The notes: a model not told the origin generated them from the letters alone. 56,737 bases of DNA from Candidatus Saccharimonadales bacterium (GCA_041742395.1 JBGSIS010000003.1:1-56737), one strand, 5' to 3'; shown: positions 562 through 45,902, counted from the stretch's first letter. A program made the numbers and translations.

Positions 562-3500
562 ATGTCTGAAAAACCAGACTTACATATTGCTGATGAATAT
601 GATCGGATTGTTGAAGAAGTAACAAGAGCAGTTAATCTCCGCGTTACGGAAATTGAGAACGCGCCATTTATTCCAGAACAACCTCGTTGGAAAGACTCTG
701 GAGAACCAAGATTAGTTTTACCTTTTGTACAAATACCCAAAAATGGAGATATTAAAGGACACTTTAGTCCTGCCTCGAAAAGAAGTGCATATGAAATTCT
801 TAAAGAAGATTTAAGTGAAACTAGAGAGCGACTAAGACTAGCTGCTAGAGAGACTTTTATGGTACCAGATGGTGAAAGTGGTATACAGCAAATGCTTGCG
901 ACTCCATACGGAGTAGCTGAAGAGTTACAGAATGGAATAAATGCAACTAAATATGTATTTAGTAGTATTGTTGAGCAAACTGGTGAAGTTCCTAGAAAAG
1001 TGCTTGTTGCTAGTGTTGCTGTGGCTACTTTATTTTCAAGTCTAAATATTATTACAGACAGTAACAATAGGTCCGAACAAGCAATGGGGCCAGACGGTGT
1101 TATAGGTACTGAACTTATTGTCGATAGAAGTGATAAAAATGCCAAAGTTACCTTTAGCCCTGAAAACCAAGATATAAAACTATCCGAGATAGCTGCAGAA
1201 CAACTTTTAGGTGTACCAGAAACTGAAGTTGTTATTGATGGTAATAAAATAAAATATATAGGACAGGCTATGAAATCTTCTGACGAAGAACTAATAGCCG
1301 CAACAATGGAAGCACAAAGACCCGATTTATCAAAAGTTGAAGTTGTCATTGAACCAAAAGTGGAAAAGCCAAAGTTTCCGACAACTCCTGAAGAAAAATT
1401 TTCTGCGGAAATTATCGCTATTGAAGACACTTTAAAACATGCAATCAAAACAGGTGGAGATTTAGGTCCACTAACCCACATGATCGCAAATTCACCAATA
1501 TTCCAACCAAGGTATGACCTGCCCGGTGATCTAGAGAATGGAACGATTCGTGTAATGCCACCAGCAAACTTATTAAATATCGATGGGCTAAAATACGAAT
1601 TTTCACAAGGTGCGCCAGATAAAGAGAGAATGGCTACTAGCAATACTGTTGCCTTAACCCTCGCTACTGCTTATGCATATAATCAATCTATTACTGCGAA
1701 TGAAGAGTATTCAGAAAAGTATGGAGATTCTTGTATAAGAGTTGGTGATTTGTCAGCCGATAAAGATCATGTTTCTCATTTTGGTTCTCAGGTCGACATA
1801 ACTTCAGTTTTAGAATGTGAGTTGATTGAAGGACATGAGATAGCTAATGGCCCAGTTTTTTGGATCAATCATACAGTAGGCGGAATGGATCAAGAAATAT
1901 CTAATCCCGTTCACGATGAAGGTCTTGATAATTTGATGCTACATTTTATCGCTAGTTCTCACATAGAGGGAAAGTCTATTACAGGAAAGATTTTATATAG
2001 TAAGCCAGACACTCCTGATAGGGTAGTCCCTCATGATAATCACAGTAATCACATTCATATAAATGTTGCTCCACCACTAAAAGATTTAGATCTTAAGGAT
2101 TTTGCTGAAGGCGGCGATAGACCGGAGAGAAACCTAGATCAACTACGTGGCCAAATTTCAGCAGACTATAACGCAGGCTTAGGTGTAGAGGGTATATCAA
2201 TAATACCAAAATCAAAAGAAGAAATTGTTAATTCAAATGAAAATCTTACTTTAGAACTTAGTCCTGATGCAGTAAAAGTATTAGATGGATTTATGCCAAA
2301 GATTGAAGAGCTGAAGTCAGTGTATCAAGAAATAGAGAAACAGACTGGGGTTCCATGGCAATTAATGGCCGCACTTCATAATCGAGAAGGAGGAAATAGG
2401 TCTGATGCTTCTATGTTTGCTGGCGAAAAAATCGGTAGTATTAATCCAGATCATGACACACCTATTGGTTCAAGTTTGCTAGAAAACGGAATAAATGCAG
2501 CTGAACACTTCAAGTTAATGTCTAATAGTATTTACGGTGTCGAGGTTTCTTCGAATATGACAAATGAACAGCTTCAGTATGCGTTTCTAGCTTACAACAG
2601 AGGCAACATGTATAAAAATGCCAAAGATTATATTGGCAGAGAAATGACCCCTCAAGAATCACCTTATGTTATGAATGGTCTAGTTGGTTACGAAAATATG
2701 CTTTGGCCAAACAAAGGGAATTACAGTAAGTCAAACTCAAGAGACAGTTGGGGTGAACCAAACTCCGTACAAGGAAAGCCCAATAAGCAACTTGGAGCTA
2801 TTAGCGTTGCAATTGGTCTTGGGTTTGGATCACAACGTAGCCAACCTTCACAGAACAGAATTTTGGTTTTAACTGGTGATTCTTTAACTGTTGGGCTTGA
2901 TGAAAATCATGCAAACATTCAAGAAATGGATATTGATTTCGGCGTCAATGTAATTGCACTTAATGCCAGGGGGGGTAGACCCTTATCTCGAGGACAGGAT
3001 AGCGGAATGGATTCAATTGAAGGGTTGATTACCGCAGGAAAAATCCAGGATGCAGATGTTGTTTATTTAGCTTATGGAACAAACTTTGAAGAAAAGATAC
3101 AGTTTGAGCAAAATCTACGAAAAGCTATTGCAAGAATACATGAAGTTTCTGACGCAAAAGTCGTGATGCCATTAATTTTCTCACAAGTTAAATATAGACA
3201 TTCCAGAAATGAAATTATTATGAACGTAGCTAAAGAAACAGGGTCTGAAGTTATTAATCCGGGAGATGGATTATCACTTAGCGATGGTCTTCACCCTAGT
3301 CCAGATGGCTATCGAGAAATGGCTAAAAGAATTCTAGATGAAGTTTCAAAGATGGATTTTACTCCTGAACCAATAAATACTGCACCTTTAGCGCAACCGG
3401 CTGTGCCAGTAGAACCGTCCAGCGATAAACCTGTAGAAACTATAGATACACCAGAAGAACAAGATTCTGCAGATAATAAGCCTATTACTGAATTTGAAAA

Positions 3501-3762
3501 AAATGAATCAAATGAAACTCCAGAAGAGACAGAAAATAAACAGGAAGAAATTTGGTTTAGTGAACAAAGTGCTAGAAAGGTATATGAAGTCTGGTTTACT
3601 GAAAAGGAAGAAACCGAAAGTGGAGAAATAATTTTTAAGGTAAATGAACAATCTCTTGATAATTGGATGACAAGTAATGTTAAGTCTGAAGAACGTGAAG
3701 GAAAAACAGTTTATCAGATTGATTTTAATAATGTTCCAACTGAAACTGAGCGAGGAGAATAA
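562..3762 (+). CDS. Membrane-anchored multidomain putative peptidoglycan hydrolase (MepA-like peptidase + lysozyme-like + SGNH/GDSL esterase)
   Basis: TM segment VLVASVAVATLF; RVGDLS..HVSH..G..VDI and HSNHIH; TGVPWQLMAALHNREGG...AYN.G...SPYV; GDSL, GTN, DGLHP. Confidence 0.7.
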   Translation: MSEKPDLHIADEYDRIVEEVTRAVNLRVTEIENAPFIPEQPRWKDSGEPRLVLPFVQIPKNGDIKGHFSPASKRSAYEILKEDLSETRERLRLAARETFMVPDGESGIQQMLATPYGVAEELQNGINATKYVFSSIVEQTGEVPRKVLVASVAVATLFSSLNIITDSNNRSEQAMGPDGVIGTELIVDRSDKNAKVTFSPENQDIKLSEIAAEQLLGVPETEVVIDGNKIKYIGQAMKSSDEELIAATMEAQRPDLSKVEVVIEPKVEKPKFPTTPEEKFSAEIIAIEDTLKHAIKTGGDLGPLTHMIANSPIFQPRYDLPGDLENGTIRVMPPANLLNIDGLKYEFSQGAPDKERMATSNTVALTLATAYAYNQSITANEEYSEKYGDSCIRVGDLSADKDHVSHFGSQVDITSVLECELIEGHEIANGPVFWINHTVGGMDQEISNPVHDEGLDNLMLHFIASSHIEGKSITGKILYSKPDTPDRVVPHDNHSNHIHINVAPPLKDLDLKDFAEGGDRPERNLDQLRGQISADYNAGLGVEGISIIPKSKEEIVNSNENLTLELSPDAVKVLDGFMPKIEELKSVYQEIEKQTGVPWQLMAALHNREGGNRSDASMFAGEKIGSINPDHDTPIGSSLLENGINAAEHFKLMSNSIYGVEVSSNMTNEQLQYAFLAYNRGNMYKNAKDYIGREMTPQESPYVMNGLVGYENMLWPNKGNYSKSNSRDSWGEPNSVQGKPNKQLGAISVAIGLGFGSQRSQPSQNRILVLTGDSLTVGLDENHANIQEMDIDFGVNVIALNARGGRPLSRGQDSGMDSIEGLITAGKIQDADVVYLAYGTNFEEKIQFEQNLRKAIARIHEVSDAKVVMPLIFSQVKYRHSRNEIIMNVAKETGSEVINPGDGLSLSDGLHPSPDGYREMAKRILDEVSKMDFTPEPINTAPLAQPAVPVEPSSDKPVETIDTPEEQDSADNKPITEFEKNESNETPEETENKQEEIWFSEQSARKVYEVWFTEKEETESGEIIFKVNEQSLDNWMTSNVKSEEREGKTVYQIDFNNVPTETERGE

Positions 3763-31363: not shown

Positions 31364-32299
31364 ATGAGAGTGTACAAAAAAATATCAAAGACAACTACAG
31401 TAACTTTATTAATTATCACTTTAGTTTTTGCATTTATTAGTGACACCGCAAGAGTTAGTGCTCAAACAGCATGTGCAGCACTTCCAACTGATAAGGGACA
31501 AGCAGTTTCTGATATATCGGCAACTTCAGCAGGAACATACTATGTATGGGTAAGAATGATGGCACCTGATACTGTAAGTAACTCAGTCTATCTTCAAGTT
31601 AATAACTCGCTTTGTAACGTTAACTTTGGTGACAGCAGTATACCTCCCAATACTTGGACTTGGGTAAATTATAGAGATGGCACTTCGGCTAGTAAAGTTA
31701 GTACTAACTTAGTTTCGGGTGCTAATAAGCTATATATTGCGGGACGTGAAAATGGCGTTAAGGTTGATAAGGTTATCTTTACCGCGAATTCGACATGTAT
31801 TCCAAGTGGGTTTGGTGAAAATTGCACAACCAACCAGCCAGACACAACTCCACCGTCAACTCCAACTAGTCTTACTTCTTCTAGCGTAAGTCAAACAGGG
31901 CTCAGATTATCCTGGAACGCTAGTACTGACGATAAGGCAGTAACAGGTTATGAAATATTTAGAAATGGTACTAGAATAGCAACTTCAACAACTAATAGCT
32001 ATACGGTATCAGGATTAACAGCCAGTACTACATATTCATTCTATGTTAAAGCTTATGACGCAGTTCCGAATATATCACCATCATCAAACACTATTCAGGT
32101 TACTACGCTCGCTTCAACTCCAGTTACCAGACAAGGTGACATTAATAATGATAATAAAGTCGATCTAGTCGATCTTAACTATCTTATTAGTAACTGGGAT
32201 CCAAGCGGCATTAAACCAGGATCTTTAGCTGACTTTAATAAAGACAATAAAGTCGATCTAGTTGATCTTAACTATCTTATTAGCGGTTGGACTGGATAA
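31364..32299 (+). CDS. Secreted protein: CBM-like domain + fibronectin III + C-terminal dockerin
   Basis: Signal peptide; GTYYVWVRM..REN.VKVD; DTTPPSTP..LSWNASTDD.AVTGY..VKAYDA; twin GDINNDNKVDLVDL/ADFNKDNKVDLVDL. Confidence 0.85.
   Translation: MRVYKKISKTTTVTLLIITLVFAFISDTARVSAQTACAALPTDKGQAVSDISATSAGTYYVWVRMMAPDTVSNSVYLQVNNSLCNVNFGDSSIPPNTWTWVNYRDGTSASKVSTNLVSGANKLYIAGRENGVKVDKVIFTANSTCIPSGFGENCTTNQPDTTPPSTPTSLTSSSVSQTGLRLSWNASTDDKAVTGYEIFRNGTRIATSTTNSYTVSGLTASTTYSFYVKAYDAVPNISPSSNTIQVTTLASTPVTRQGDINNDNKVDLVDLNYLISNWDPSGIKPGSLADFNKDNKVDLVDLNYLISGWTG
32153..32283 (+). repeat. 38-bp direct repeat (two copies, 1 mismatch) encoding the dockerin EF-hand pair
   Basis: AATAAAGTCGATCTAGT(C/T)GATCTTAACTATCTTATTAG at 32153-32190 and 32246-32283. 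Confidence 0.9.
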
Positions 32300-32424
32300 T
32301 TTAAAGCTTGAAAAAATAATTAACCCAGAGTAAAGTAAAAGCATAAACATTTAAAAACAGAGATCTTTAAACAAACAAAAAATTAACCGAAGCAGCGAAA
32401 ATTGCTAGATTTTAAAAATTTAAA

Positions 32425-33015
32425 ATGAAAAAATATAAGTTAAATAAAAAAAGAAAATACTACACAGTTGATTATGTTAAGTACTATTCTATTGGAGTAA
32501 TGCTAGTTGCGGTATATTTATTTATTAACGTAATTTCTCCGATAGTAATTCCAGGTAAGGGCACAGCCTACGCTTCGACAAGCGAGATAAAATCATCACT
32601 CAAGGATAATAATAGAATTATAGTGCCAAAGCTTAACTTGGACGTCGAATACTTTACTGGAACACAACAGGTTCTAAATAAAGGAGCTTGGCACAGATTT
32701 CCTGAAAGAGGAAATCCCAAAGAAGGCGGTAATTTTATTCTTGCAGCTCATAGGTTTAAATTAGACTGGACACCATGGAGTACTAATCATAGTTCTCCTT
32801 TCTATAATATAAATAAACTAAATGAAAGCGACCAGATAATTATTCAGTATGAAGGTGAAATATTTGAGTATAAAATAAGTAAAATATATGAAGTTAAGTC
32901 AAATGATACAAAAATTGAGGCAACAACAACTGAAAATAGACTAACACTTTACACATGTACTTTAAATGGTAGCGATGATGGTAGGATTGTTATTGAAGCC
33001 TCAATTGTAAACTAG
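32425..33015 (+). CDS. Sortase
   Basis: N-terminal TM; GNFILAAHR, LTLYTC, GR (H-C-R triad). Confidence 0.9.
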   Translation: MKKYKLNKKRKYYTVDYVKYYSIGVMLVAVYLFINVISPIVIPGKGTAYASTSEIKSSLKDNNRIIVPKLNLDVEYFTGTQQVLNKGAWHRFPERGNPKEGGNFILAAHRFKLDWTPWSTNHSSPFYNINKLNESDQIIIQYEGEIFEYKISKIYEVKSNDTKIEATTTENRLTLYTCTLNGSDDGRIVIEASIVN

Positions 33016-33137
33016 TTATGCTATAAGCTATAAATTAGGTTAAAAGATATTATTTTCGTGTTAACTAATCTAGTACTTTAGTTAAAATAATATTTATTCA
33101 AAAAATGCATGCAAATCAACTTAATAATAAATATCAT

Positions 33138-34799
33138 CTACACACCTATTTCAATTGTTTCGCCGCCAAGTTTTCTAGAAAATATACTATCGTGAGATAT
33201 ATAAATTACTGCACCACGATAGTCTACTAATGCATTTTCTAGTTCTTCGATACTTGGAAGATCAAGGTGATTGGTAGGTTCATCAAGTATTAGAATATTG
33301 GGGTCACCAGCTAACATTGCAATAAGTTGTAAACGAGCTTTTTGCCCACCACTTAATCGGGTAACAGGCATATCTATATCTGCCATTGGGTTAAATAGAT
33401 AATTACTAAGTAGTTGCTTTACATGTTGTGGATTAATAGGAAGGTTCTTATCGCGGAGTATTTGTTCGACGGCTTGCCCTAAATTCATTTTCAAGTAATC
33501 AGAGTCTATTTCTTGTTCGTATAATCCAATTGATATTTCTTTTTCTAATATTATGTTGCCAGAGAATTGCTGACTAGTTAGTTTCTCATCGTTTAGTTTA
33601 GATATTATTGCTCGAACAAGCGTAGTTTTTCCGGCTCCATTTCTGCCATTAAGACGTAATCGTTCACCTTCATTAATAATAAAATTGATATTGTCAAATA
33701 ATGGCTCGTCATCGTAACCTAAACTAAGTTTAGTTACTTGAAGTAACTTTCTTTTAGTTTTTTCAGATGAATGTTTTTTAGTATCGATCTTTATATTAGT
33801 AGCTTTGTATTTATCATAAGCAGCTGTTAGTTTAGTACTCATGTTTTCAGTAGATTCTTGATCAATCCAGAATGATGGCTTTTCCTTTTGTAGTAGACTT
33901 TTAAGTTCAGCCTCTGCCTTAGATTCTTGAGATTTAAATCTTCGAATTGTACCCGGCGTTCGAGATTTTTCCTTAAGTCGTCTAAATCTTACAATATCTT
34001 GTCTCAAGTTACTAATCCGACGTTGCGATATATCATATTCATTAACCTTAGATGTCACTTGGCTAGTGTTAGTCCTAAGATATGCATCATAATTTCCACG
34101 AAAGTTATATGCTCGGCCATCTCTGACTTCAATGATGCGGTCTACGTTACTAAGCACGTCACGATCATGTGTCACGACTAACACAGCTTCTTTAGTTTCT
34201 TTAAGCCATTTAATAAATGATTTCTTAGCTACATAATCCATGTGGTTGGTCGGTTCATCTATTAGTGCTAAATTACCTCGGCTTCGTTGCACTTTAATCA
34301 GCTCAATCATTCTTTTCTGCCCACCACTTAAAGTACCTATTTTTCGGTGTAAGTGAGAAGTATCTATTTGGTAAGTGTCAAAAGCTTGTCCAAGCTCATC
34401 TTCGAGTTGGTAATAGCCGAGATGCTCAAAGCGTTCTATGGCATCCGAGAATTTTTGAATCATATGAGGCTTACTTCCCATTGTTTCCGGGTAAGTATCA
34501 ATAATATGTGTCAAGTCTTGATATTCAGGCAGATCCCCTTGAATATACTCCAGGACAGTCTTATCTTCATGACCATGATGCTCTTGTCTACTAGAAATAA
34601 CTACTGTTCCAGTTTTGGACAATATTTCACCTTCAAAATCTTTGTCGTCGTTAATAATTATATTAAGAAGTGTTGACTTGCCAGTTCCGTTCCTTCCAAC
34701 TAACCCAATCTTTTCACCTTCTTGAATATCAAAATTTAGATCCTTGTATAGAACCTTGTCGCCAAAAGATTTTTCAGATATATTTACGGAAAGTAGCAT
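33138..34799 (-). CDS. ABC-F family ATPase
   Basis: Two NBDs (GRNGTGKST, LSGGQ, DEPTNH twice), no TM. Confidence 0.93.
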   Translation of the reverse strand: MLLSVNISEKSFGDKVLYKDLNFDIQEGEKIGLVGRNGTGKSTLLNIIINDDKDFEGEILSKTGTVVISSRQEHHGHEDKTVLEYIQGDLPEYQDLTHIIDTYPETMGSKPHMIQKFSDAIERFEHLGYYQLEDELGQAFDTYQIDTSHLHRKIGTLSGGQKRMIELIKVQRSRGNLALIDEPTNHMDYVAKKSFIKWLKETKEAVLVVTHDRDVLSNVDRIIEVRDGRAYNFRGNYDAYLRTNTSQVTSKVNEYDISQRRISNLRQDIVRFRRLKEKSRTPGTIRRFKSQESKAEAELKSLLQKEKPSFWIDQESTENMSTKLTAAYDKYKATNIKIDTKKHSSEKTKRKLLQVTKLSLGYDDEPLFDNINFIINEGERLRLNGRNGAGKTTLVRAIISKLNDEKLTSQQFSGNIILEKEISIGLYEQEIDSDYLKMNLGQAVEQILRDKNLPINPQHVKQLLSNYLFNPMADIDMPVTRLSGGQKARLQLIAMLAGDPNILILDEPTNHLDLPSIEELENALVDYRGAVIYISHDSIFSRKLGGETIEIGV

Positions 34800-35106
34800 A
34801 AGTGTTATAGTATACTCTATTTTTTGATAAACTACTACAGCTTTACTAAAAAATTAGTTCAAATAATATATTTAAACTATTATAAAATCTAAAGTATCCA
34901 ACTTATTTTTATAGAATCATGGGCATACACTCTTGTTTAAATTAAAATTTATAATGATTTGAATATAAGTGAATATAGGGAAGTGACTAAATAATTTGTC
35001 TTATAAATATACTTTGATTATCAATTATTTGTCTATAGAATGACATACAATCAAAAGCTCTCTTAAAATTAGCACAATGCAATTATTGAAAGTATTAAAA
35101 TATTAT

Positions 35107-37260
35107 TTATTCTAAGCTACACCAAAGTAAGAAACAGTTTGCTTTGGCTGAGGTTGTTGCAGCATCTGACGTATTTCCTGCAGCATCTTGAGCTTCGATT
35201 CTATAGTTATACAGTGTTCCACTTTTCAAGCTGGAGTCTTTATAATTTGTACTAGTTGTTTTACTAATAACTGTGCCGTTGCGACTTACGACATATTGAT
35301 CTACTCCAATATTGTCACTTGATGCATTCCATTTTATTTGTAAATCATATCTCAATCTAGCTGCATTTAATATAAGACTTCGACTAATATTGGTTGGACT
35401 AGTTGGTTTTTGGATGTCTAAAGTTGGTTGAGGAATTGGAGTAGGAGCGGGAGTAGGCGTCGGAGCAGGAGCTGGAATCGGTGTCGGGGCAGGAACAGGA
35501 GTAGGATTTACACTGTTAGCTGAACTAATAGTGGCATCATCTAGATAGAATACTTCTCCGTACTCTGCACCTTCAATGAAAAGTCGTAGTCCAACATTAG
35601 TTGTATTAGCTGGAGCAATTGCGCTGCAGGTTCGGGTTGTCCAACCAGTTGTAGTAGTTGTTGATGTACCTGACACTGTAGATAGGATCTTACCTCCATT
35701 GTAGAACCGAATTTCACAACGAGCATTCCTTTGATTCGAAGCAGATTTTACAGCTAGTGAAGCAGTAATGTTTTGTCCGGCTGTAGTAGTTAGACCTTGA
35801 GTATATTGAGGTGTGCCAATTCTGATAGTTTTAGAGTTATCTGGGAATTGACCACTAGCGTCAGCTTTGACAACTAGAGCTCCAGCTTTCTTTTGACCTT
35901 GAGCTGTAGTGTGAGTAAATGATGCATTACCTTGACCTACCCAGTCAGTAGTGCTTACATCGAAGCTGTATGTGGCCGGTAGTGTTGCTTGTATACTCTC
36001 AGGTTCAGCTGGATCGTTTGGACTTGGTGCAGGTATCGGTTCTGGTGTAGGAGGGACAGGCGCAGGAGTAGTTGTAGTAGTAGTTGATCCCGGTACTGGA
36101 GGTGGGATTGGATCGCCATCGTAGACTGCTCCAATAAAGTCGTTTATTTTACCTACTTTTCCGGCATAGTTAGAAGTTACTCCGGTTGTTTCATCCAATA
36201 TTCTATCGCCATAGTTGTTCTGGGTGATAACATAGTCAGCCCTTTGATTTCCGAAACCGATTGACCATGTACGTATAGATAGTCCTGGATAATATCTGAG
36301 GTTAGGCCCAATTTCATTATTTCGTACCATTTGTGGGTTACTGGGATTGGTACCCATTATAGATATGCCAGTATTGAAGCCATTAATATAATTGTCTTCT
36401 ACTAATACACCTTCAGCCCCTGAAGGGCCTGCTGAGCCGGTGGCTGTATTCGGAACCCATATTCCGATGTTACCACCGTTTTCTGGTCCATCTTGAGCAC
36501 CAGCTGCAAGGGCACTTTCACTTGGATGAACTCCGGTAATAATGGTGTTATGTCGAGCAATCCAGTTAAATTTGAAATATTCACCTTGAATTCCATCAAC
36601 ATGACCAGGTGAATTTTCAGTACCTTGTCCGGAAATATTCAGATAGTTGTGTTCAAATAACGAGTTAGTACCAGACTTAATCCCGTCACCCGATCCTTTA
36701 ACTAAACTATAGCGAACTGTTCCCGGATAATAAGCATCAATTCCAGAGATAGACCAGCCAGTTGGACCTTGATCTATAATACAGTGATCGATAAGGTAAG
36801 GACTACCACTTGTTTTCTTGATTGCAACAGTTCCTGTACCTACAGTTTTTGTTGTATAGGTTACTTTACAGTCAATAAGAGCAACTTTAGGTGCCTGTAT
36901 ATACAATGGTCCTTCAAATTCGTAACCCTGTAATCGCATCCAACCATCAGCTCCGCGTGTTCCTGAGCTTTCAGTTATCGTAGTTCCACCAGTCCACTTT
37001 TTTAGTGGACCATAAGGTTTATGACCATAAGTTGATGCTTGAGGACCAACATCAGCTTGTGTAATAAACTTATTTGTCGTCGCTGCATTAGACATAAATA
37101 CTAGAGCAGAACCAATAACTGCAAATATTAATGCGAATACAATAAACATACTTCGTTTAGAATAATTAGTTAAGAATCCATAACGAGAAGTTTTTGTTGT
37201 TTTTTTACGGTTAGTAGTTTTACGAGTTGTAGGTTTGTTTTTATTGGCTTGCTTTGCCAT
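35107..37260 (-). CDS. Large exported protein: beta-helix + Pro/Thr linkers + CBM4/9-like + FN3
   Basis: TM; DGIK..EHNY..HVDGIQ..RHNTI..EDNYING; PAPT repeats; WNASSDNIGV..AQDAAGNTS. Confidence 0.8.
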   Translation of the reverse strand: MAKQANKNKPTTRKTTNRKKTTKTSRYGFLTNYSKRSMFIVFALIFAVIGSALVFMSNAATTNKFITQADVGPQASTYGHKPYGPLKKWTGGTTITESSGTRGADGWMRLQGYEFEGPLYIQAPKVALIDCKVTYTTKTVGTGTVAIKKTSGSPYLIDHCIIDQGPTGWSISGIDAYYPGTVRYSLVKGSGDGIKSGTNSLFEHNYLNISGQGTENSPGHVDGIQGEYFKFNWIARHNTIITGVHPSESALAAGAQDGPENGGNIGIWVPNTATGSAGPSGAEGVLVEDNYINGFNTGISIMGTNPSNPQMVRNNEIGPNLRYYPGLSIRTWSIGFGNQRADYVITQNNYGDRILDETTGVTSNYAGKVGKINDFIGAVYDGDPIPPPVPGSTTTTTTPAPVPPTPEPIPAPSPNDPAEPESIQATLPATYSFDVSTTDWVGQGNASFTHTTAQGQKKAGALVVKADASGQFPDNSKTIRIGTPQYTQGLTTTAGQNITASLAVKSASNQRNARCEIRFYNGGKILSTVSGTSTTTTTGWTTRTCSAIAPANTTNVGLRLFIEGAEYGEVFYLDDATISSANSVNPTPVPAPTPIPAPAPTPTPAPTPIPQPTLDIQKPTSPTNISRSLILNAARLRYDLQIKWNASSDNIGVDQYVVSRNGTVISKTTSTNYKDSSLKSGTLYNYRIEAQDAAGNTSDAATTSAKANCFLLWCSLE

Positions 37261-37522
37261 TATACATCCTTTTTATTTTTTAATGCTTATGGCTTTATTT
37301 ATATCATATTTAGTAATTTGATGTAAACGAATAAAAGGAAGCTAATAATTTGTAAGATTTCTATTTTTGGTCAATCTGACAACCATTTGTTGTCTCTCCA
37401 TAGCAAATGCTGAACACATATGGGTCAATTGTTCTCGTTTTAAAAATCAAACAAGGTGTCTATGTCAAAAAAATGTACTTATATATAAATGGACGCAATT
37501 AATTCTGGAATAAATATTGAAA

Positions 37523-39496
37523 TTAATCCCTTTGGTCCTGACCAACTAACCTCGCTCGCATTTCAGTGAATCGTTGTTGGTCTTTTAGGGCAAGTTCTCC
37601 GGGCTTCGTTCCTTTATTGGCATGTTTTGTTTTAACGTCAACTTTTCCGCCAATGATATTAATTACCGTTATTACAATCGGACTACGTCCAGTATTTTCA
37701 TACATAAAGTGAGTTATAAAATCTCGTATTTCCGCCTTCAAACGATCCAGATTAACACGTTTATATCTCTGCGTTAAAGATCGTTGAAGCTCTTTTCTGA
37801 ATAGACTCATAATTTCTTCGTTATCTTTCATTTCTATGAACCCCCGACTAATAATGTCAGGACTTGTTAATAACTGACCAGATTTTTTGTCTAGGGTTAG
37901 GATCACGGCCATTATACCTTCTTCACCTAACATCAAACGGTCTTTGACTACTAAGCCACTCACAATACTACCATTTTGATCAACCAATAAGCTGCCATGA
38001 GGTTCCTGTCCGCCGTGTTCGATAGTGTCGGGAGTCAAGTAAAGACAGTCTCCGTTTTCAAGAATCATTATATTCTTACGCGGAATACTTTCCTCGACTC
38101 CGAGTTCAGCATGGTAGATGCGACGAAGTGTACCGGCGTGAACAGGAATGAAAAACTTAGGACGAACTAGTTTTAGCATTTCTCGGAGTTCACCTCTACG
38201 GGCATGTCCGGATACGTGCAGAGGGCCACAGCCGTCAACCTCGTGTGTTGGGTGCCTAAAAAGGTGTACACCTTTTTGCTTAAGACGGTTACTGAGCTGG
38301 TCATAAGAGACTTCATTTCCGGGAATCGGAGATGAGCTAATGACAACCGTATCACCATCGCTAAGATTAACATGCCTATGTTCACCTTCACTCATACGTT
38401 GAAGTGCGGCATTAGGTTCACCTTGTCCACCGGTACACATTACAAGTAATTTATGTGGAGCAATATTGCTGGCCTGCTGGATTGGGATAACTGTGCCTTT
38501 AGGAATTTTTAGAATACCTTGTTTTACGGCAATTTCGGCATAACTGAGCATACCGCGACTGTCGAGGGCTACATTACGTCCAGCCGCCACTGCAGCATTA
38601 ATGATCATTTGGGTGCGGTTCATGTTACTGGAAAAAGCGGCCACAAAGATTCGTCCAGTCGCTTTACCAATAATGTCATAGAAACTCTGCTGCAATGTGC
38701 TTTCCGTTGGCACACGACCCTCTACATCGGCATAGCTACTATCACTCAGCAGCAGTAAAACTCCTTTATCACCAAGCTCTTTAAGGCGTTTTGTATCACT
38801 GGGCATTTTATCTAGAGGTTCAGGATCTAACCTAAAATCTCCGGTGGCAATAATGCGTCCCACAGGCGTGTCAATGCAAAGTGCTGCTGCATCAGGCAGG
38901 GCATGTGTTACTCGCACGAATTCTACAGAGAAGCTAGCAATATTAAACTTCTCATGCGTATCTAGTTGAGCGGTAACTACCTGAGGTTTAAATTCCTGTC
39001 CAGTATCGACAAATAGATCCTCAAAAGCCTTTTCTACTAACCCAATTGTGTAGCGTGAGCCGTATATTGGCGCAGGATACAGTGGTACTGTATGTCGAAG
39101 CCCACCAATGTGATCTAAGTGGCCGTGGGTGATAATATATGCTTTAATCTTATGTTTAATGGTTTTAAGGTATGAGATATCATTAACTGTATAGTTAACA
39201 CCAGGCAAATCTATACCCAATGAGTTGCCACAGTCTAGTATTATGGCCTCATTTTTATATTCGATGATGGCCATATTTTTTTCTCCGACATCTTCAAGTC
39301 CACCTAGGAAGGTTATTTTTAGTTTATCAAAGTAATCTGCTATGATATTTGCACGCTTAAGAGATCTCTGTGATGCATCTGCATACTTTTTAATGACGAG
39401 GTTAGCGTCGTCTTGATTACGCTTTTGTGCCCGAATTGCTGCACCGCGAGTTTTTGCAGAAATACTACGTAGTTCTTGTTTATTATTATTGTTCAT
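37523..39496 (-). CDS. rnj: Ribonuclease J
   Basis: LGGLEDVGEKNM, THGHLDHIG, TGDF, GGQGEP, PIPGNE, HVSGH, PVH, SRGF. Confidence 0.95.
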   Translation of the reverse strand: MNNNNKQELRSISAKTRGAAIRAQKRNQDDANLVIKKYADASQRSLKRANIIADYFDKLKITFLGGLEDVGEKNMAIIEYKNEAIILDCGNSLGIDLPGVNYTVNDISYLKTIKHKIKAYIITHGHLDHIGGLRHTVPLYPAPIYGSRYTIGLVEKAFEDLFVDTGQEFKPQVVTAQLDTHEKFNIASFSVEFVRVTHALPDAAALCIDTPVGRIIATGDFRLDPEPLDKMPSDTKRLKELGDKGVLLLLSDSSYADVEGRVPTESTLQQSFYDIIGKATGRIFVAAFSSNMNRTQMIINAAVAAGRNVALDSRGMLSYAEIAVKQGILKIPKGTVIPIQQASNIAPHKLLVMCTGGQGEPNAALQRMSEGEHRHVNLSDGDTVVISSSPIPGNEVSYDQLSNRLKQKGVHLFRHPTHEVDGCGPLHVSGHARRGELREMLKLVRPKFFIPVHAGTLRRIYHAELGVEESIPRKNIMILENGDCLYLTPDTIEHGGQEPHGSLLVDQNGSIVSGLVVKDRLMLGEEGIMAVILTLDKKSGQLLTSPDIISRGFIEMKDNEEIMSLFRKELQRSLTQRYKRVNLDRLKAEIRDFITHFMYENTGRSPIVITVINIIGGKVDVKTKHANKGTKPGELALKDQQRFTEMRARLVGQDQRD

Positions 39497-39778
39497 ATTT
39501 TTCCTTTATTTAAGGTTGTTATTTTTTAATATTTAATGATTTTTACTGTATATAACAGCTGATTATAAGTAGATTATTGGAGTTCAATAGTGTAGTTGTA
39601 AAAAAGAGATTTATAATGGATTTCAGAAAAGATAGCTGTTGAATATCTTAAGAAGATACTCTAGTTACGTACAATAATAGCATATGCATTACAATAAGTC
39701 AAGGATTTTATCAAGTTTATGTATTTGGCTAGCAGGATGAGAATCAACTCATTTCTGTTCAAAAGTTCTTTACAAAAA

Positions 39779-39813
39779 GAAAAAGACCGTTTATAGCAAA
39801 ACGGTCTATCTTT
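39779..39813 (-). terminator. Terminator after tRNA-Gln
   Basis: AGACCGTTT/AAACGGTCT stem with an A run (T run on minus strand). Confidence 0.65.
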
Positions 39814-39825
39814 ATAATCACTTCG

Positions 39826-39899
39826 TGGCTGGGGATGAGGGATTTGAACCCCCGATCCTGGGACCAGAACCCAGAGCCTTACCACTTGGCCAATCCCCA
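39826..39899 (-). tRNA. tRNA-Gln(CTG)
   Basis: TGGGGAT/ATCCCCA, CTGGG-TTCTGGT-CCCAG, TTCAAAT, G73-CCA. Confidence 0.95.
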
Positions 39900-39939
39900 A
39901 TGATAACGGGGAAATTGTAGCAAAAATATGTGTTTATAT

Positions 39940-40389
39940 CTAGTTTAGTTTTTCTAATGGTCCAACTAGATAATCTTCTAATTGTAACTGTGCTTGTGAG
40001 CTATGCGGTGTACCTGATCCAATAGAATCTCCTTCAGAAGTTTTTCTTTTTTCAAAGAGGGCTGTACCGTCATTTCCGCAAGATTGAACAATTACATTAC
40101 CTCCAGGATGTTGAGATATATAATCAGAAATGTCATAGACATTACCAGATACGATAGTCCAGCAATCTTCCTTAGAATTGTGCTTGGCTACTTCTTCATT
40201 TGTAAGTCTTGCTGAGCCTTGTATATCATCTGATTTAATAGAGTCAGACGGTGAACTTAACGGCGCAGAAGTTAACTGTTCTGTAGTAACTTGACCTTTT
40301 TGTTCACGAGTCAATCTGAAAATTGTAAATCCGAATACTCCAATTAATATAATTCCTAGAAATAAAACAAGTTTTTGAACTTTATTCAC
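39940..40389 (-). CDS. Membrane-anchored cytochrome b5-like heme-binding protein
   Basis: EVAKHN..DCW..VYD..HPGG..CGNDGT..HS. Confidence 0.92.
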   Translation of the reverse strand: MNKVQKLVLFLGIILIGVFGFTIFRLTREQKGQVTTEQLTSAPLSSPSDSIKSDDIQGSARLTNEEVAKHNSKEDCWTIVSGNVYDISDYISQHPGGNVIVQSCGNDGTALFEKRKTSEGDSIGSGTPHSSQAQLQLEDYLVGPLEKLN

Positions 40390-40503
40390 GTTTTGTGCCT
40401 CAATTAAATTGATATAATTATCTCAGATTTTAAAACATAAAAAAATATTTTAGTTCTAATGCTTTTATGTTAAAGTTTATTTATATAAGAGGTCCTTTCA
40501 TAA

Positions 40504-42111
40504 ATGAAATATTATTCAAAACTAAAAAATGGTTTCTATGTTTATTCTGCTAAAAAAACAGCATTAATAGCCATATTAATAATGGCTATTTTGTTAATTC
40601 CAGTATCAAATTACATTAACTACACATTTGCTTCATCAACGACTAAGGTTTTCTTGACACCTTCAACAAACTCGGTATCTCAGGGATCAAACGTTAATAT
40701 AGGTGTAAATTTGAACACTGGTGGTGAGAATATAACAAGCGCTAAAGTGGTAATTAACTACGATGTATCCAAATTAGAATTCGTTTCATTTGACTATTCA
40801 TCAAGTTCTTTTTCAATACATTCTGATACGTTTAACAAGGTAGAATCAGGTAAATTATCGTATAATACTTCTGCTTTTACTGGAGTAAACTCGGCTAATG
40901 CAAATATTTTTAGTATTAGGTTTAAATCAATTGGAAGTGGAAGCAGTTCGGTTACTGTCAGTCAGCCGGAGTCTGTACTCCTAGGTCCATCATCAGAGCT
41001 TAACCCTCCAAATCTTCTAAGTGTTGTTGAAGGTGCCAGTGTTGACATTTCTAGCCCAACACCTGATCCAGAGCCAAACCCTCCTACAACCAATCCAACT
41101 CCAAATCCAACACCTGATCCAGAGCCAAACCCTCCTACACCCAATCCAACTCCAATTAGTGAACCAAGCCCTACTTCTAATAGCTCAAATCCAAAAACTA
41201 GCAATTGGTCACAGCCGTCCGTTAATTTAAAGAAAGATCAAACCCAAGCACCCCAAAGTAGTAGTGCTACCGCTCCTCAAATTGCAAATGTAGAGATAAA
41301 CAACCTTGGTTATAGATCTGCGGATATTAGTTGGTCTACCGACAAGCCATCTAATTCAATATTAAATTTAGGAGCAGATAAGGACTCACTTGCAATTAAT
41401 GTTAAATCAGACGGTATAAAAAACGCTCATTCTGTTAGGCTTGATGAAAACTATCTTACACCTGGCACAACTTTCTATTTCAAAATAACCAGTTCTGATG
41501 AAGCTGGTGAAAAAACAGTGAGCGAAACATATAGTTTCGTAACAAAAGGGTATGATGTAGTAGCTCAGGTTGTAGACAAGCAGGCTAATCCAGTTTCTGA
41601 AGTTATAGTGACATTAAACTCAGACACTCGTATATCCGAAACTGATGAAAATGGAAATGCTTCTTTCTATAATGTAGCTCCTGGTCAACACACCGTTTCT
41701 TTTGAATACGGAGGAGAAGTCTACAGTCAATCAATTAATGTTGAAGATAAATTGAACGTTTTAACATCTGCAGTACAGTATTCTGAAGCAACAGGACAAG
41801 CCCAGGTATTTACTGTGTCACTTGATCAGTCAGTTAATAGATTTATTAATAACCTTATATGGATAATTATCATCCCTATTGTACTAATTGTTTCCTATTT
41901 CATAATTAGAAAAGGAATTCCAGTATTACACAGAAAGAATAATGGAGCGTCTTTCAACAACTCTACAAGTATTAATGTCGGAAATACACCTGATGATATT
42001 AATTCTTCAGTATCACAAAAATCACCTATTGAACTAGTAGACGGAGTACCTATAGAAAAACCAGGTTCAACTATAACTCCAAAAAACAACGACTCTGATA
42101 CTTATAACTAA
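40504..42111 (+). CDS. Surface protein: cohesin + Pro-rich linker + FN3 + carboxypeptidase-regulatory-like domain + C-terminal TM
   Basis: LTPS..V..G....V.LNTGG..I....V.INYD.SKLEFVS; ISWSTDKPS..H.V.L..LTPGTTFYF; TDENG.A.F.NV.PG.HT; TM followed by RK. Confidence 0.8.
   Translation: MKYYSKLKNGFYVYSAKKTALIAILIMAILLIPVSNYINYTFASSTTKVFLTPSTNSVSQGSNVNIGVNLNTGGENITSAKVVINYDVSKLEFVSFDYSSSSFSIHSDTFNKVESGKLSYNTSAFTGVNSANANIFSIRFKSIGSGSSSVTVSQPESVLLGPSSELNPPNLLSVVEGASVDISSPTPDPEPNPPTTNPTPNPTPDPEPNPPTPNPTPISEPSPTSNSSNPKTSNWSQPSVNLKKDQTQAPQSSSATAPQIANVEINNLGYRSADISWSTDKPSNSILNLGADKDSLAINVKSDGIKNAHSVRLDENYLTPGTTFYFKITSSDEAGEKTVSETYSFVTKGYDVVAQVVDKQANPVSEVIVTLNSDTRISETDENGNASFYNVAPGQHTVSFEYGGEVYSQSINVEDKLNVLTSAVQYSEATGQAQVFTVSLDQSVNRFINNLIWIIIIPIVLIVSYFIIRKGIPVLHRKNNGASFNNSTSINVGNTPDDINSSVSQKSPIELVDGVPIEKPGSTITPKNNDSDTYN
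41056..41155 (+). repeat. 51-bp tandem duplication encoding PTPDPEPNPPT(T/P)NPTP
   Basis: CCAACACCTGATCCAGAGCCAAACCCTCCTACA.. at 41056 and 41107. Confidence 0.9.
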
Positions 42112-43022: not shown

Positions 43023-43928
43023 ATGGGTAAAAAAATTACAATACTGTTAACAGTTTTGTCGATTATTGTTCTTATTGGACTAGGTTATATTTATCTAAAA
43101 GACCAAAATATAATGCTAATCAACACAAAAGGCATTATCGCTGAAAAGCAAAGAAATCTAATTTTTATTGCTACTGGACTGATGCTAATAATTGTAATAC
43201 CCGTATATTTTATGGCGGCTTGGTTTCCATACAGGTATAGAGAATCTAGAAAGTCAAATGATTATCGACCAGATTACGACAGCAACAATACACTTGAAAC
43301 TATTTGGTGGGGTATTCCCATAGCAATAATAGGCGTAATTGCTGTTATTACATGGATAAGTACTCATGAATTAGATCCTTATAAACCTCTTGCTAAAAAA
43401 AACCAACAAAAAACAATACAAGTAATATCTATGCAGTGGAAATGGTTGTTTATTTATCCTGAAGAAAAAATAGTTTCAGTAAATAAAATATTAATTCCTG
43501 AAGACAAACCAATAAGTTTTCAGATAACTTCAGACGCCCCTATGAACTCTTTTTGGATTCCTCAGCTTGCTGGGCAGATTTACTCAATGAACGGAATGTC
43601 TACAATGCTCCATATTGAAGGTAATGAGCTGGGTAGCTATGAAGGAATGTCATCTAATATTAGTGGTGAAGGTTTCTCTGATATGAGATTTAAAGTAGAT
43701 GTGGTTAATCAAAAAGAATACGATAGTTGGGTCGATAAAATTAAACAAAGTAACGAAGTTTTCGGTATGAGTCAGTATAAGCAATTAAGTACTCCCAGTA
43801 TCAGAAATGTTCAACAGCAATTTGTCTTGACAGACGAAGACATTTACCAACAAGTAATGGCGAAATATATGGCTAAAGAAGGTATGACTAAAGATAATCA
43901 CCAATCACATGCAGGGGGAGGAAGTTAA
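43023..43928 (+). CDS. cyoA: Cytochrome bo3 ubiquinol oxidase subunit II
   Basis: LETIWWGIP, THELDPY, WKWLFIYPE, MNSFWIPQLAGQIY; no CuA cysteines. Confidence 0.95.
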   Translation: MGKKITILLTVLSIIVLIGLGYIYLKDQNIMLINTKGIIAEKQRNLIFIATGLMLIIVIPVYFMAAWFPYRYRESRKSNDYRPDYDSNNTLETIWWGIPIAIIGVIAVITWISTHELDPYKPLAKKNQQKTIQVISMQWKWLFIYPEEKIVSVNKILIPEDKPISFQITSDAPMNSFWIPQLAGQIYSMNGMSTMLHIEGNELGSYEGMSSNISGEGFSDMRFKVDVVNQKEYDSWVDKIKQSNEVFGMSQYKQLSTPSIRNVQQQFVLTDEDIYQQVMAKYMAKEGMTKDNHQSHAGGGS

Positions 43929-45902
43929 ATGTTAACTATGTTTACAGTCTTTGGTTCAACCGAAGGAACTGATCCGTTTTTGATGGGTGCCAAAGTGATG
44001 CTTGTTGGGGGTGTGATATTCCTTGCATTGATTGTCACGCTTCTAAAAAGATGGAAATGGATATGGAAGGAGTGGCTCACTTCTCTTGATCCAAAGAAAA
44101 TAGGTGTAATGTATTTAATAGTTGCATTCGTGATGTTGCTTAGAGCAGCAGTTGATGCTGGAATGATGAGAGCTCAGCAAGCTATTGCTTCTGGTGGGTC
44201 TGATGGCTTTCTGAGTGCAGATCATTTTCAACAAGTTTTTACGGCTCACGGTACTTTGATGATCTTGTTTGTAGCAATGGGTCTGATGTTTGGACTGATA
44301 AATCTTATTGTTCCTTTGCAAATTGGTGCAAGAGATGTTGCTTTTCCATTTTTGAACTCACTAAGTTTCTGGCTTTATGTGGCGGGAGTGGTTCTAATAA
44401 ACGCTTCTCTAGTAATAGGAGGAGAGTTTTCTATAGCAGGTTGGCTCGCATATCCGCCGCTATCTGGAATTGAATATAGTCCTGGACCGGGAGTAGACTA
44501 TTGGATATGGAGCGTTCAGATCGCTGGTATTGGCAGTTTACTCTCTGGTATTAATTTCTTTACTACAATAATCAGAATGCGTAGACAGGGAATGACTTTG
44601 ATGAAAATGCCTATTTTTACATGGTCAGTATTAGGAAGTATGTTGCTGGTTCTTGCTACATTCCCAATTTTAGCGGTGACCCTTGCTTTACTTTCTTTAG
44701 ATAGAACGTTTGGTATGCATTTTTTTACATCGAGTTTTGGTGGAAATCCAATGATGTACATTAATTTGATATGGGCCTGGGGCCATCCGGAGGTTTATAT
44801 ATTAATACTCCCAGCTTTTGGAATTTTCTCAGAAGTGGTTTCTACATTTTCAAAGAAGAGACTATTTGGATATAAATCAATGGTTGGAGCCATAATAGCA
44901 ATAACTTTTCTATCACTAGTAGTATGGCTTCATCACTTCTTTACTATGGGGGCTGGGGCAGATGTTAATGCGTTCTTTGGAATTATGACTATGATAATTG
45001 CAATACCTACTGGTGTGAAAGTATTTAACTGGCTGTTCACGATGTATAAGGGCAGGGTAAAAATTAGTCAATCAATGGTTTGGTTTATTGGATTTTTGTT
45101 TACTTTTACATTAGGTGGGATGACGGGAGTAATATTATCTATACCAGCAGCTGACTTCCAATTACACAATAGTTTATTTTTAGTGGCTCACTTCCATAAC
45201 ATGGTAATTGGTGGAGTTGTTTTTGGCTATATGGCTGGAATAACTTATTGGTTCCCTAAAATATTCGGATTTAAGCTTGACGAGAAACTAGGTAAAATAT
45301 CTGCTTGGTGTTGGATAATTGGATTCCTGGTAGCTTTTGTCCCAATATATATTTTGGGATTGATGGGGGCAACAAGAAGGTTTGAGAAGTTTGATGAGTC
45401 GCTTGGATATCAACCGTTATTTATTGTTGCAGGCGTCGGAGTTGCTATTATTGGCATTGGCGTGGCATTTATGCTCATTCAGCTAGCCTACAGTATTTAC
45501 AATCGAAAGAAGTTGGCAGATAAAACAGGTGATCCTTGGGACGGTAGAACACTAGAATGGTCTACTCCGTCTCCGGTGCCTTTTTACAATTTTGCCTTAG
45601 AGCAACCAGTAACTGAAAGAGATGAATTTTGGGCACAAAAACAGAAAGGTATTACATTTAGGTCAGACTACTCTGACATTGTTCTTCCAAAGAATTCACC
45701 TATAGGACTATATTTGGGATCAATTGCAGCTATTTTTGGAATGGCAGCCATCTGGAAAATATCTTGGTTAGCTATATTATCTCTTATTACCGCAATAGTA
45801 TTTGTGATTATTAGAGCTAGTGATGACGAAACAGAGTATGTACTAACGTCTAGAGAAATCAAGAAATTAGAATCTAAAATATCTTCAGGAGGCGTTAAGT
45901 AG
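43929..45902 (+). CDS. cyoB: Cytochrome bo3 ubiquinol oxidase subunit I
   Basis: FTAHG, WGHPEVY, WLHHFF, VAHFH, GDPWDGRTLEW. Confidence 0.97.
   Translation: MLTMFTVFGSTEGTDPFLMGAKVMLVGGVIFLALIVTLLKRWKWIWKEWLTSLDPKKIGVMYLIVAFVMLLRAAVDAGMMRAQQAIASGGSDGFLSADHFQQVFTAHGTLMILFVAMGLMFGLINLIVPLQIGARDVAFPFLNSLSFWLYVAGVVLINASLVIGGEFSIAGWLAYPPLSGIEYSPGPGVDYWIWSVQIAGIGSLLSGINFFTTIIRMRRQGMTLMKMPIFTWSVLGSMLLVLATFPILAVTLALLSLDRTFGMHFFTSSFGGNPMMYINLIWAWGHPEVYILILPAFGIFSEVVSTFSKKRLFGYKSMVGAIIAITFLSLVVWLHHFFTMGAGADVNAFFGIMTMIIAIPTGVKVFNWLFTMYKGRVKISQSMVWFIGFLFTFTLGGMTGVILSIPAADFQLHNSLFLVAHFHNMVIGGVVFGYMAGITYWFPKIFGFKLDEKLGKISAWCWIIGFLVAFVPIYILGLMGATRRFEKFDESLGYQPLFIVAGVGVAIIGIGVAFMLIQLAYSIYNRKKLADKTGDPWDGRTLEWSTPSPVPFYNFALEQPVTERDEFWAQKQKGITFRSDYSDIVLPKNSPIGLYLGSIAAIFGMAAIWKISWLAILSLITAIVFVIIRASDDETEYVLTSREIKKLESKISSGGVK

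Follow-up and report, generated by a model that had tools for sequence, protein, structure and literature searches.

The window analysed here, a stretch of 56,737 nucleotides, is contig C3 of the genome of a Candidatus Saccharimonadales bacterium (GCA_041742395.1), which comprises 1.10 Mb on 34 contigs and is 98.8% complete. Two of its genes are our subject, one for a protein that ends in a dockerin and one for a protein that begins with a cohesin. A sequence-only reading of this DNA had seen in them a surface display system without cellulases, in which a mini-scaffoldin plugs interchangeable glycan-binding adhesins onto the surface of an epibiont. The two genes are laid out as follows.

31364..32299, plus strand: gene of the dockerin cargo protein, an open reading frame (ORF) of 311 residues with signal peptide, carbohydrate-binding-module-like (CBM-like) beta-sandwich, fn3 and dockerin
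31364..31462, plus strand: predicted Sec signal peptide, residues 1-33, with cleavage after VSA (sequence inspection)
31463..31843, plus strand: CBM-like domain, residues 34-160, related to GH115_C / CBM6-35 (Atlas clusters and a relative's domain)
31856..32089, plus strand: fn3 domain, residues 165-242 (PF00041, E 5.6e-11, 42.9 bits)
32135..32281, plus strand: dockerin, residues 258-306, two near-identical calcium-loop and helix repeats (PF00404)
40504..42111, plus strand: gene of the membrane-anchored single-cohesin protein, an ORF of 535 residues
40630..41052, plus strand: cohesin domain, residues 43-183, type-I-like (PF00963, AlphaFold2, Foldseek)
41053..41292, plus strand: linker rich in Pro, Thr and Asn, residues 184-263, 80 residues long (sequence inspection)
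41293..41718, plus strand: two Ig-like stalk domains, fn3-like at residues 264-347 and CarboxypepD_reg-like at residues 354-405 (sub-threshold Pfam matches)
41851..41907, plus strand: C-terminal transmembrane helix, residues 450-468 (mean Kyte-Doolittle hydropathy 2.69)
41908..42108, plus strand: predicted cytoplasmic tail of 67 residues, ending in KPGSTITPK (sequence inspection, hydropathy)

The first gene product had been described as a secreted CBM-like/FN3 protein with a C-terminal twin EF-hand dockerin, and the ORF, the fn3 domain and a Dockerin_1 match above the Pfam cut-off all bear this out (PF00404, 26.1 bits with the cut-off at 22.9, and 29.7 bits when the genome was scanned). Its C-terminus has the two tandem loop-helix segments of a type I dockerin; the repeats match each other at 17 of 20 positions, and in both 12-residue calcium loops, DINNDNKVDLVD and DFNKDNKVDLVD, the residues D1, N3, D5 and D12 are intact. 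When the dockerins of this genome are aligned with those of its relatives (29 in all), loop positions 1 and 12 never vary, and conservation reaches 90% or more at positions 3 and 5. The N-terminus, as judged by inspection, has a K-rich start, a hydrophobic core and a VSA/Q junction, and would be a Sec signal. The domain that follows (residues 34-160) found no match in a Pfam search and none in a sequence search of the PDB (best E 0.83, to nanobodies). Two leads nevertheless suggest that it is a beta-sandwich of the carbohydrate-binding type. In the ESM-Atlas it lies closest to the clusters GH115_C (0.93, with 184 features in common) and CBM_6/CBM_35 (0.90). It also resembles, at 32% identity (E 2e-29), the corresponding domain of a dockerin protein in a related genome, G027; that domain itself scores 23.8 bits on GH115_C, just below the cut-off of 24.1. 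Orthologs with the same architecture occur in public metagenomes at 89, 89, 80 and 66% identity; a metagenome scan with the dockerin protein returned for the most part matches at the fn3 level, none of them a close ortholog with genomic context.

For the second gene product, Pfam, AlphaFold2, Foldseek and hydropathy agree on a transmembrane-anchored protein with an N-terminal cohesin, as had been claimed. Residues 43-183 alone score 33.6 bits on PF00963 (cut-off 24.1, E 5.4e-8; 32.9 bits in the genome scan), and Pfam Cohesin is likewise matched by 44 of the 57 aligned cohesin homologs. The AlphaFold2 model of this domain is all-beta and confident, with a predicted local distance difference test score (pLDDT) of 94.2 and a predicted template modelling score of 0.88; by AlphaFold2 and Foldseek together it has the nine-stranded flattened beta-sandwich (jelly roll) of the cohesins. 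Against the PDB, Foldseek gave 115 matches at E≤1e-3, and the top rows shown are all cohesins, mostly of type I, with template modelling scores between 0.62 and 0.78. The best is 6kgf_C (E 2.7e-10, score 0.75), and the matches include OlpA (3ul4_A, E 3.5e-7), OlpC (4dh2_A, E 1.1e-7), ScaE (2zf9_B, E 1.4e-6) and the non-cellulosomal cohesin of Archaeoglobus fulgidus. One of the two points on which the sequence-only reading had staked itself, the fold of this N-terminal domain, is thus upheld by both structural methods. An index-free search found 342 relatives of the cohesin at E≤1e-3, where the word index yielded only 2; no related loci of the whole protein were found in the genome contigs.

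The remainder of this protein resembles a stalk and an anchor. The Pro-rich/FN3 stalk that had been proposed stands in its first part, the Pro/Thr linker, which is plain on inspection; for the FN3 part there are sub-threshold Pfam matches (Pur_ac_phosph_N at 23.9 bits, cut-off 30; CarboxypepD_reg at 25.4 bits, cut-off 32.3). The residues RK directly after the transmembrane helix would fit the positive-inside rule. An ortholog from the same genus (G003), 37% identical over the full length, has the same layout with a (PT)n linker at the equivalent place, scores 35.2 bits on CarboxypepD_reg and has in common with the window protein the tail motif PGSTI.P. A pattern scan of all ORFs found no LPXTG-type C-terminal signal on any cohesin or dockerin protein; with this lack and with 67 residues following its helix, the 535-residue protein does not have the build of a sortase-anchored surface protein. 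Nor does it appear to be an SLH-anchored scaffoldin, no SLH family being listed for it by Pfam at E≤0.1. A single cohesin on a predicted transmembrane anchor is what the term mini-scaffoldin had implied, and the term can be kept.

The tails of the cohesin anchors in this genome and its relatives are of low complexity, and several end in a Pro motif (KPGSTITP, QPGSTIAP, KPGNVIEP, QPGEVVSP, PTVVQP), by eye in about 7 of 13; this hints at an intracellular partner.

An inventory by Pfam scans, pattern scans and custom profile hidden Markov models (HMMs), the last run over the genome's 8130 six-frame ORFs with a minimum length of 40 residues, supplied the genome-wide count that had been called for: three dockerin proteins (on contigs C3, C26 and C31) and two clear cohesin proteins. 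Beyond the window these are the following.

C26:3-638, plus strand: dockerin protein, a 5'-truncated ORF with the end of a CBM-like domain, Big_7 and dockerin
C31:263-1870, minus strand: dockerin protein of 535 residues (locus L003)
C10:41674-44208: second cohesin protein, 845 residues, with signal, cohesin, fn3/Big_7 and a CarboxypepD_reg-like end

The idea of more than one interchangeable cargo is therefore sustained by three proteins. The C26 dockerin scores 31.7 bits on PF00404. The three dockerins are 58-73% identical to one another, as compared with 20-47% to the 26 dockerins of relatives, and all have the linker NWDP.G.KP in common, while their cargo domains are unrelated; such likeness despite unrelated cargo would be expected if they had been selected to fit one shared partner. 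The C10 cohesin shares 53% identity with that of the window and matches a cohesin-family HMM, built without it, at 3.5e-37. Its protein has five fn3 and two Big_7 stretches by Pfam and no C-terminal transmembrane helix. Since there is this second cohesin protein, the window anchor is not the sole possible partner of the dockerins. The genome scan with PF00963 overlooked the C10 cohesin, and all genome tallies from profile scans are for this reason lower bounds.

Two further observations concern this inventory. At positions 3-380 of the window (minus strand) lies an ORF cut by the contig end, of which 126 residues are seen, with an N-terminal transmembrane or signal segment and a beta-rich start. 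It gives a weak cohesin signal (14.7 bits by Pfam; E 1.7e-4 with the custom HMM over the signal peptide and first strands); we have not counted it as a cohesin because it is truncated and the match is mainly to its hydrophobic N-terminus; what it encodes may be a third cohesin-like surface protein or one that resembles CARDB. Contigs C25 and C26 both begin inside paralogous genes (C25:3-743 and C26:3-638, both plus strand) whose first 46 residues, the end of a CBM-like domain, are identical; the C25 gene then continues into two fn3 domains with no dockerin, the C26 gene into Big_7 and its dockerin. This repeat probably broke the assembly, leaving the N-terminal halves outside it.

As regards cellulases, their absence from the system, also part of the sequence-only reading, agrees with what was found. 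The three dockerin proteins have no Pfam match to a glycoside hydrolase (GH), and neither GH5 nor GH9 is matched in the 98.8%-complete genome; GH48 gave no match either, a search that carries little weight as its control matched nowhere. Of the two hallmarks of a cellulosome, then, neither the multi-cohesin scaffoldin (each cohesin protein has one cohesin) nor GH-borne dockerins are to be seen here.

The glycan-binding adhesins envisaged as cargo might correspond to the C3 and C26 proteins with their CBM-like domains; the C31 protein is not a CBM protein. Its 440-residue domain has 178 homologs at E≤1e-3, all unnamed or "hypothetical" and, where a source name is given, all from Patescibacteria. 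The C-terminal modules attached to these homologs vary: 12 of the 120 listed have a precomputed dockerin match, and others have Big_7, fn3 or nothing. Invariant residues include a Cys and an E-I-R-H-A motif. The AlphaFold2 model of the C31 protein is confident and has a faint MltA-like resemblance only; a PDB sequence search with the domain found no match, and Foldseek none at E≤1e-3 outside the dockerin. "Adhesins" is in any case too narrow a word, because the cargo of relatives includes polysaccharide deacetylases.

The two domains are associated in the relatives also. Among 40 genomes of the same order, 14 have a cohesin and 15 a dockerin, with both in 13 and neither in 24; the single cohesin-only genome is 81% complete, and of the two dockerin-only genomes one is 88% complete and the other has a match that lies below cut-off. 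In 11 of the 13 genomes with both, cohesin and dockerin lie on one contig no more than 3 kb apart. ORF maps place a gene of the X-dockerin form directly upstream of the cohesin gene in seven genomes (G018, G023, G025, G026, G033, G036 and G011), and in G015 the two domains are found within a single protein. Five more adjacent pairs (L156, L162, L165, L167, L171) come from metagenome loci, a sample picked by similarity to the dockerin protein. Of 200 genomes sampled across the phylum, 64 have a cohesin and 64 a dockerin; the two coincide in 41, the cohesin stands alone in 23 and the dockerin in another 23, and 113 have neither. If the two were independent, about 20 genomes would be expected to have both, a comparison to be read with the provisos that kin are not independent and that scans miss copies. 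On these counts the predicted cohesin-dockerin module is recurrent and widespread across Patescibacteria.

The layout of the anchor is conserved as well. All 13 cohesin proteins compared (the window's and 12 from relatives) have an N-terminal hydrophobic segment, a C-terminal transmembrane helix and a tail of 23-118 residues, and CarboxypepD_reg precedes the helix at E≤1e-3 in 7 of the 12 relatives, or 8 of 13 if the window's sub-cut-off match is counted. The cargo of relatives comprises Polysacc_deac_1 with or without CBM_4_9 (G018, G026), Big_7 repeats, fn3 and GH115_C-like domains. Directly upstream of the cohesin-transmembrane gene of G013, an ORF (L009:2013-3251, minus strand) ends in an apparent single dockerin repeat (GDGQVTGRDLSILL) that is not called by Pfam; one-repeat dockerins may thus be under-counted in these genomes.

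The check by complex prediction that had been suggested for the pair came out as "weak support", well above the controls, for what is a textbook pair. With the cohesin alignment, the dockerin alignment and two calcium ions as input, the interface score ipSAE had a median of 0.43 (runs at 0.65, 0.41 and 0.43), as against 0.03 for the best of three controls; the runs share 100% of their contacts, and the pLDDT of the partner is 84 or higher. Of 157 solved complexes, 116 pass the mark that was applied, as do 2 of 215 mismatched pairs, and scores of 0.60 or less include just 18 of the 157 solved complexes plus both mismatches that passed.

Taken as a whole, the sequence evidence makes it likely that the two domains of the window bind each other, and we regard it as reasonably probable that they form a non-cellulosomal cohesin-dockerin tethering module, which holds exchangeable dockerin cargo on the surface of a Saccharibacterium. 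In such a module the 535-residue protein would be exported N-terminus out and inserted by its C-terminal helix as a type-I membrane protein, with the 67-residue tail inside; the Pro/Thr linker and the two Ig-like domains would carry the single type-I-like cohesin outward through the wall. The secreted dockerin proteins of C3, C26 and C31 would fold their two calcium loops outside the cell and dock onto the cohesin, and would then stay on the cell surface rather than diffuse off. Either face of the dockerin could bind (the dual-binding mode), since the two repeats are near-identical. The exchangeable cargo would here be two CBM-like proteins and one member of a conserved family of Patescibacteria, and in relatives deacetylases and Ig-repeat proteins; at the cell surface it would probably serve to bind polysaccharide or wall material, or to modify it, and this might belong to a host bacterium. 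Calcium dependence, surface location and target are what we infer, and a role in host attachment is plausible. As to the organism itself, the relatives of the window's RNase J are all metagenome-assembled genomes of Saccharibacteria/Saccharimonadales (best 87% identity), and by such sequence criteria the lineage is Saccharibacteria, a relative of Saccharimonadales. The presumed epibiont setting is consistent with this lineage, for PMC10633639 describes cultivated Saccharibacteria as epibionts. Three DNA runs (X1-X3), from one study, contain 45-79% of the sampled words; no RNA run containing them is among the matches listed.

Several observations weigh against a tethering module. The complex score is weak for so well known a pairing, and its passing may reflect the predictor's memory of solved complexes; because the pass may be owed to likeness in this way, the case for binding rests mainly on co-occurrence, adjacency and the mutual likeness of the dockerins within the genome. 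In the window the dockerin and cohesin genes are 8.2 kb apart, with a sortase, an ABC-F ATPase, RNase J and a cytochrome b5-like gene on both strands between them; given this distance and the unrelated genes in between, the pair is not an operon, unlike its counterparts in relatives. Two genomes of the same genus (99% and 95% complete) have neither domain, which makes the module dispensable in the genus. When the whole 535-residue protein is put through the Pfam scan no cohesin is listed at E≤0.1, and the C31 dockerin falls short of the Pfam cut-off with hmmscan (18.9 bits; the genome scan gave 22.2/23.1 bits). The custom dockerin HMM included the genome's own three dockerins, which score high by construction, so that only the absence of further dockerin matches is informative. 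Finally, the C10 cohesin protein, even without a C-terminal transmembrane helix, could be the true partner. The dockerins would then be part of a long fibre, either secreted or held by its N-terminus, and the window anchor would have some other ligand. This arrangement, for which one may cite the close likeness of the two cohesins and the presence of three dockerins for two cohesins, seems to us rather unlikely, as it is the transmembrane-anchored layout that is conserved in all 13 cohesin proteins and that directly adjoins dockerin genes in relatives; binding to C10 would more probably come on top of binding to the window anchor than replace it, as the two cohesins are similar enough that they may share dockerins.

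A still less favoured view would have no pairing at all: the dockerin would be a calcium-dependent stabilising or target-binding module, its target being for instance a component of the host surface, and the cohesin-like domain would bind something else. The weak complex score is in keeping with this view, as are the 23 genomes of the phylum with a cohesin and no dockerin and the 23 with the reverse, and PMC10066038, citing Peer 2009, proposes that non-cellulosomal dockerins, those of Omnitrophota, are adhesins. Strong co-occurrence and direct adjacency in relatives argue for pairing, however, as do the intact calcium-loop residues and the resemblance among the genome's dockerins despite their unrelated cargo. 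It is more improbable yet that the genes encode a small cellulosome-like machine that feeds the cell on plant or algal polysaccharide from the environment. This is how such genes of the candidate phyla radiation have classically been understood, and the sense in which Kantor 2013 (PMC3812714) interpreted dockerin-like and "cellulosome anchoring" genes of SR1, as a matter of carbon degradation, and the CBM-like domains of the cargo, together with the CBM_4_9 and CE4 deacetylase cargo of relatives, would suit it. The lack of any GH match by Pfam on the three dockerin proteins and the failure to find GH5, GH9 or (with a control that matched nowhere) GH48 speak against it, and with one cohesin per anchor no multi-enzyme scaffold is formed.

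Considering the tethering module in the light of known systems, its anchor appears to have its closest functional analogues in OlpA (Cthe_3080) and OlpC (Cthe_0452) of Clostridium thermocellum, which similarly have one type-I cohesin on a cell-bound protein and hold single dockerin proteins directly. OlpA and OlpC are attached to the S-layer or cell wall through SLH domains, whereas the window anchor has a predicted C-terminal transmembrane helix with a cytoplasmic tail and no listed SLH match; their cargo consists of cellulosomal enzymes, that of the window system is without a glycoside hydrolase. ScaE of Ruminococcus flavefaciens (type III cohesin, 2zf9), a fold match, is also a cell-anchored protein with a single N-terminal cohesin. 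It is linked covalently to peptidoglycan through an LPXTG motif, which the window protein does not have in spite of the sortase gene nearby. Non-cellulosomal cohesin-dockerin systems are represented by NagH/NagJ of C. perfringens (2ozn), the Archaeoglobus fulgidus cohesin (2xdh) and the amylosome of Ruminococcus bromii. Unlike the window anchor, these assemble secreted enzymes or toxins together or on scaffoldins, and none of them is known to be a type-I membrane protein that combines a single cohesin with a tail in the cytoplasm. What is new here is thus the single-cohesin anchor held, as its sequence predicts, by a transmembrane helix, in an otherwise known type of system.

Two further cases come from epibionts. 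In Chlorobium chlorochromatii the adjacent genes Cag_2037/Cag_2038 encode a C-terminal dockerin and an N-terminal cohesin, and a preprint proposes from AlphaFold 3 modelling that the pair holds a symbiosis protein at the surface (bioRxiv 10.64898/2026.03.19.712371). As there described, these are giant proteins of the T1SS/RTX type (T1SS, type I secretion system) in a Gram-negative member of the Chlorobiota and the cohesin is on the exported effector, whereas the window proteins are small and of Sec type, with the cohesin on the membrane anchor. In Southlakia epibionticum the dockerin-domain protein SEML1_0315 is essential for epibiotic growth by transposon sequencing (Tn-seq class ES), and the authors speculate that it targets host glycans (PMC10633639). 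By their description it is, like the window cargo, a dockerin-bearing envelope protein with Ig/fn3 domains, from the same phylum and class; its neighbours are given as a hydrolase gene and a tRNA gene. The word "cohesin" occurs 0 times in the main text of that article, where no partner is mentioned, and its Table S2 has no "cohesin", "dockerin", PF00963 or PF00404 string. The literature searched, in which subscription journals are poorly covered, describes no cohesin partner and no transmembrane-anchored cohesin for Saccharibacteria.

The other features of the window that deserve mention lie between or beside the two genes.

32425..33015, plus strand: sortase (PF04203, E 6.9e-20)
35107..37260, minus strand: surface protein of 717 residues, beta-helix-like, CBM-like and fn3 (weak fn3 match only)
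39940..40389, minus strand: membrane-anchored cytochrome b5-like protein (PF00173, E 8.7e-19), just upstream of the cohesin gene
43023..45902, plus strand: ORFs resembling quinol/cytochrome oxidase subunits II and I (by sequence inspection), just downstream of the cohesin gene
562..3762, plus strand: ORF of 1066 residues with an acidic low-complexity C-terminal region

The sortase reported between the two genes is indeed one by its PF04203 match. The genome has five sortases in total, and LPXTG-type substrates are found elsewhere, LPDTG on C2 and LPNTG on C26. We have rejected the sortase as part of the system because no cohesin or dockerin protein has an LPXTG motif. The genes in between for the ABC-F ATPase, RNase J and the cytochrome b5-like protein have housekeeping functions and no relation to the system. 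The cytochrome b5-like and oxidase-like ORFs would together amount to aerobic respiratory equipment in a 1.1-Mb genome.

The 717-residue protein had been read as a beta-helix/CBM/FN3 protein. Of this, fn3 is weakly matched, and the beta-helix is indicated indirectly by one of its paralogs (on C33 and C24), that on C33 matching Beta_helix at 2.8e-12. A dockerin was looked for on it by pattern scan and custom HMM and none was found; with no dockerin and no LPXTG motif, no link to the system could be established. It and the C33 paralog (C33:13420-15177, minus strand, 586 residues) end, after the last fn3, in a Cys-containing motif, NCFL[LA]WCS[LI][EQ], which is present in no other ORF of the genome and could be an unrecognised sorting or attachment tag.

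The cultivated Saccharibacteria live attached to other bacteria as their hosts, and few of the molecules by which this contact is made and exploited have been identified. A single cohesin on a conserved membrane anchor, often encoded by the gene next to its cargo, offers a concrete and testable mechanism for keeping dockerin proteins on the cell. It also suggests that "cellulosome" annotations in the candidate phyla radiation are better read as surface tethering than as plant-fibre digestion, and it draws attention to a widespread cargo family of the C31 type, with no clear fold match in the PDB. A more doubtful extension, which we offer tentatively, is that the display is phylum-wide in Patescibacteria, a cohesin-transmembrane anchor, usually directly after the cargo gene, holding peptidoglycan- or polysaccharide-active enzymes, among them CE4 deacetylases and the 440-residue domain with its faint MltA-like resemblance, and glycan binders that let wall-dependent epibionts grip and open the host envelope. 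If true, such a display would explain the essential dockerin protein of Southlakia.

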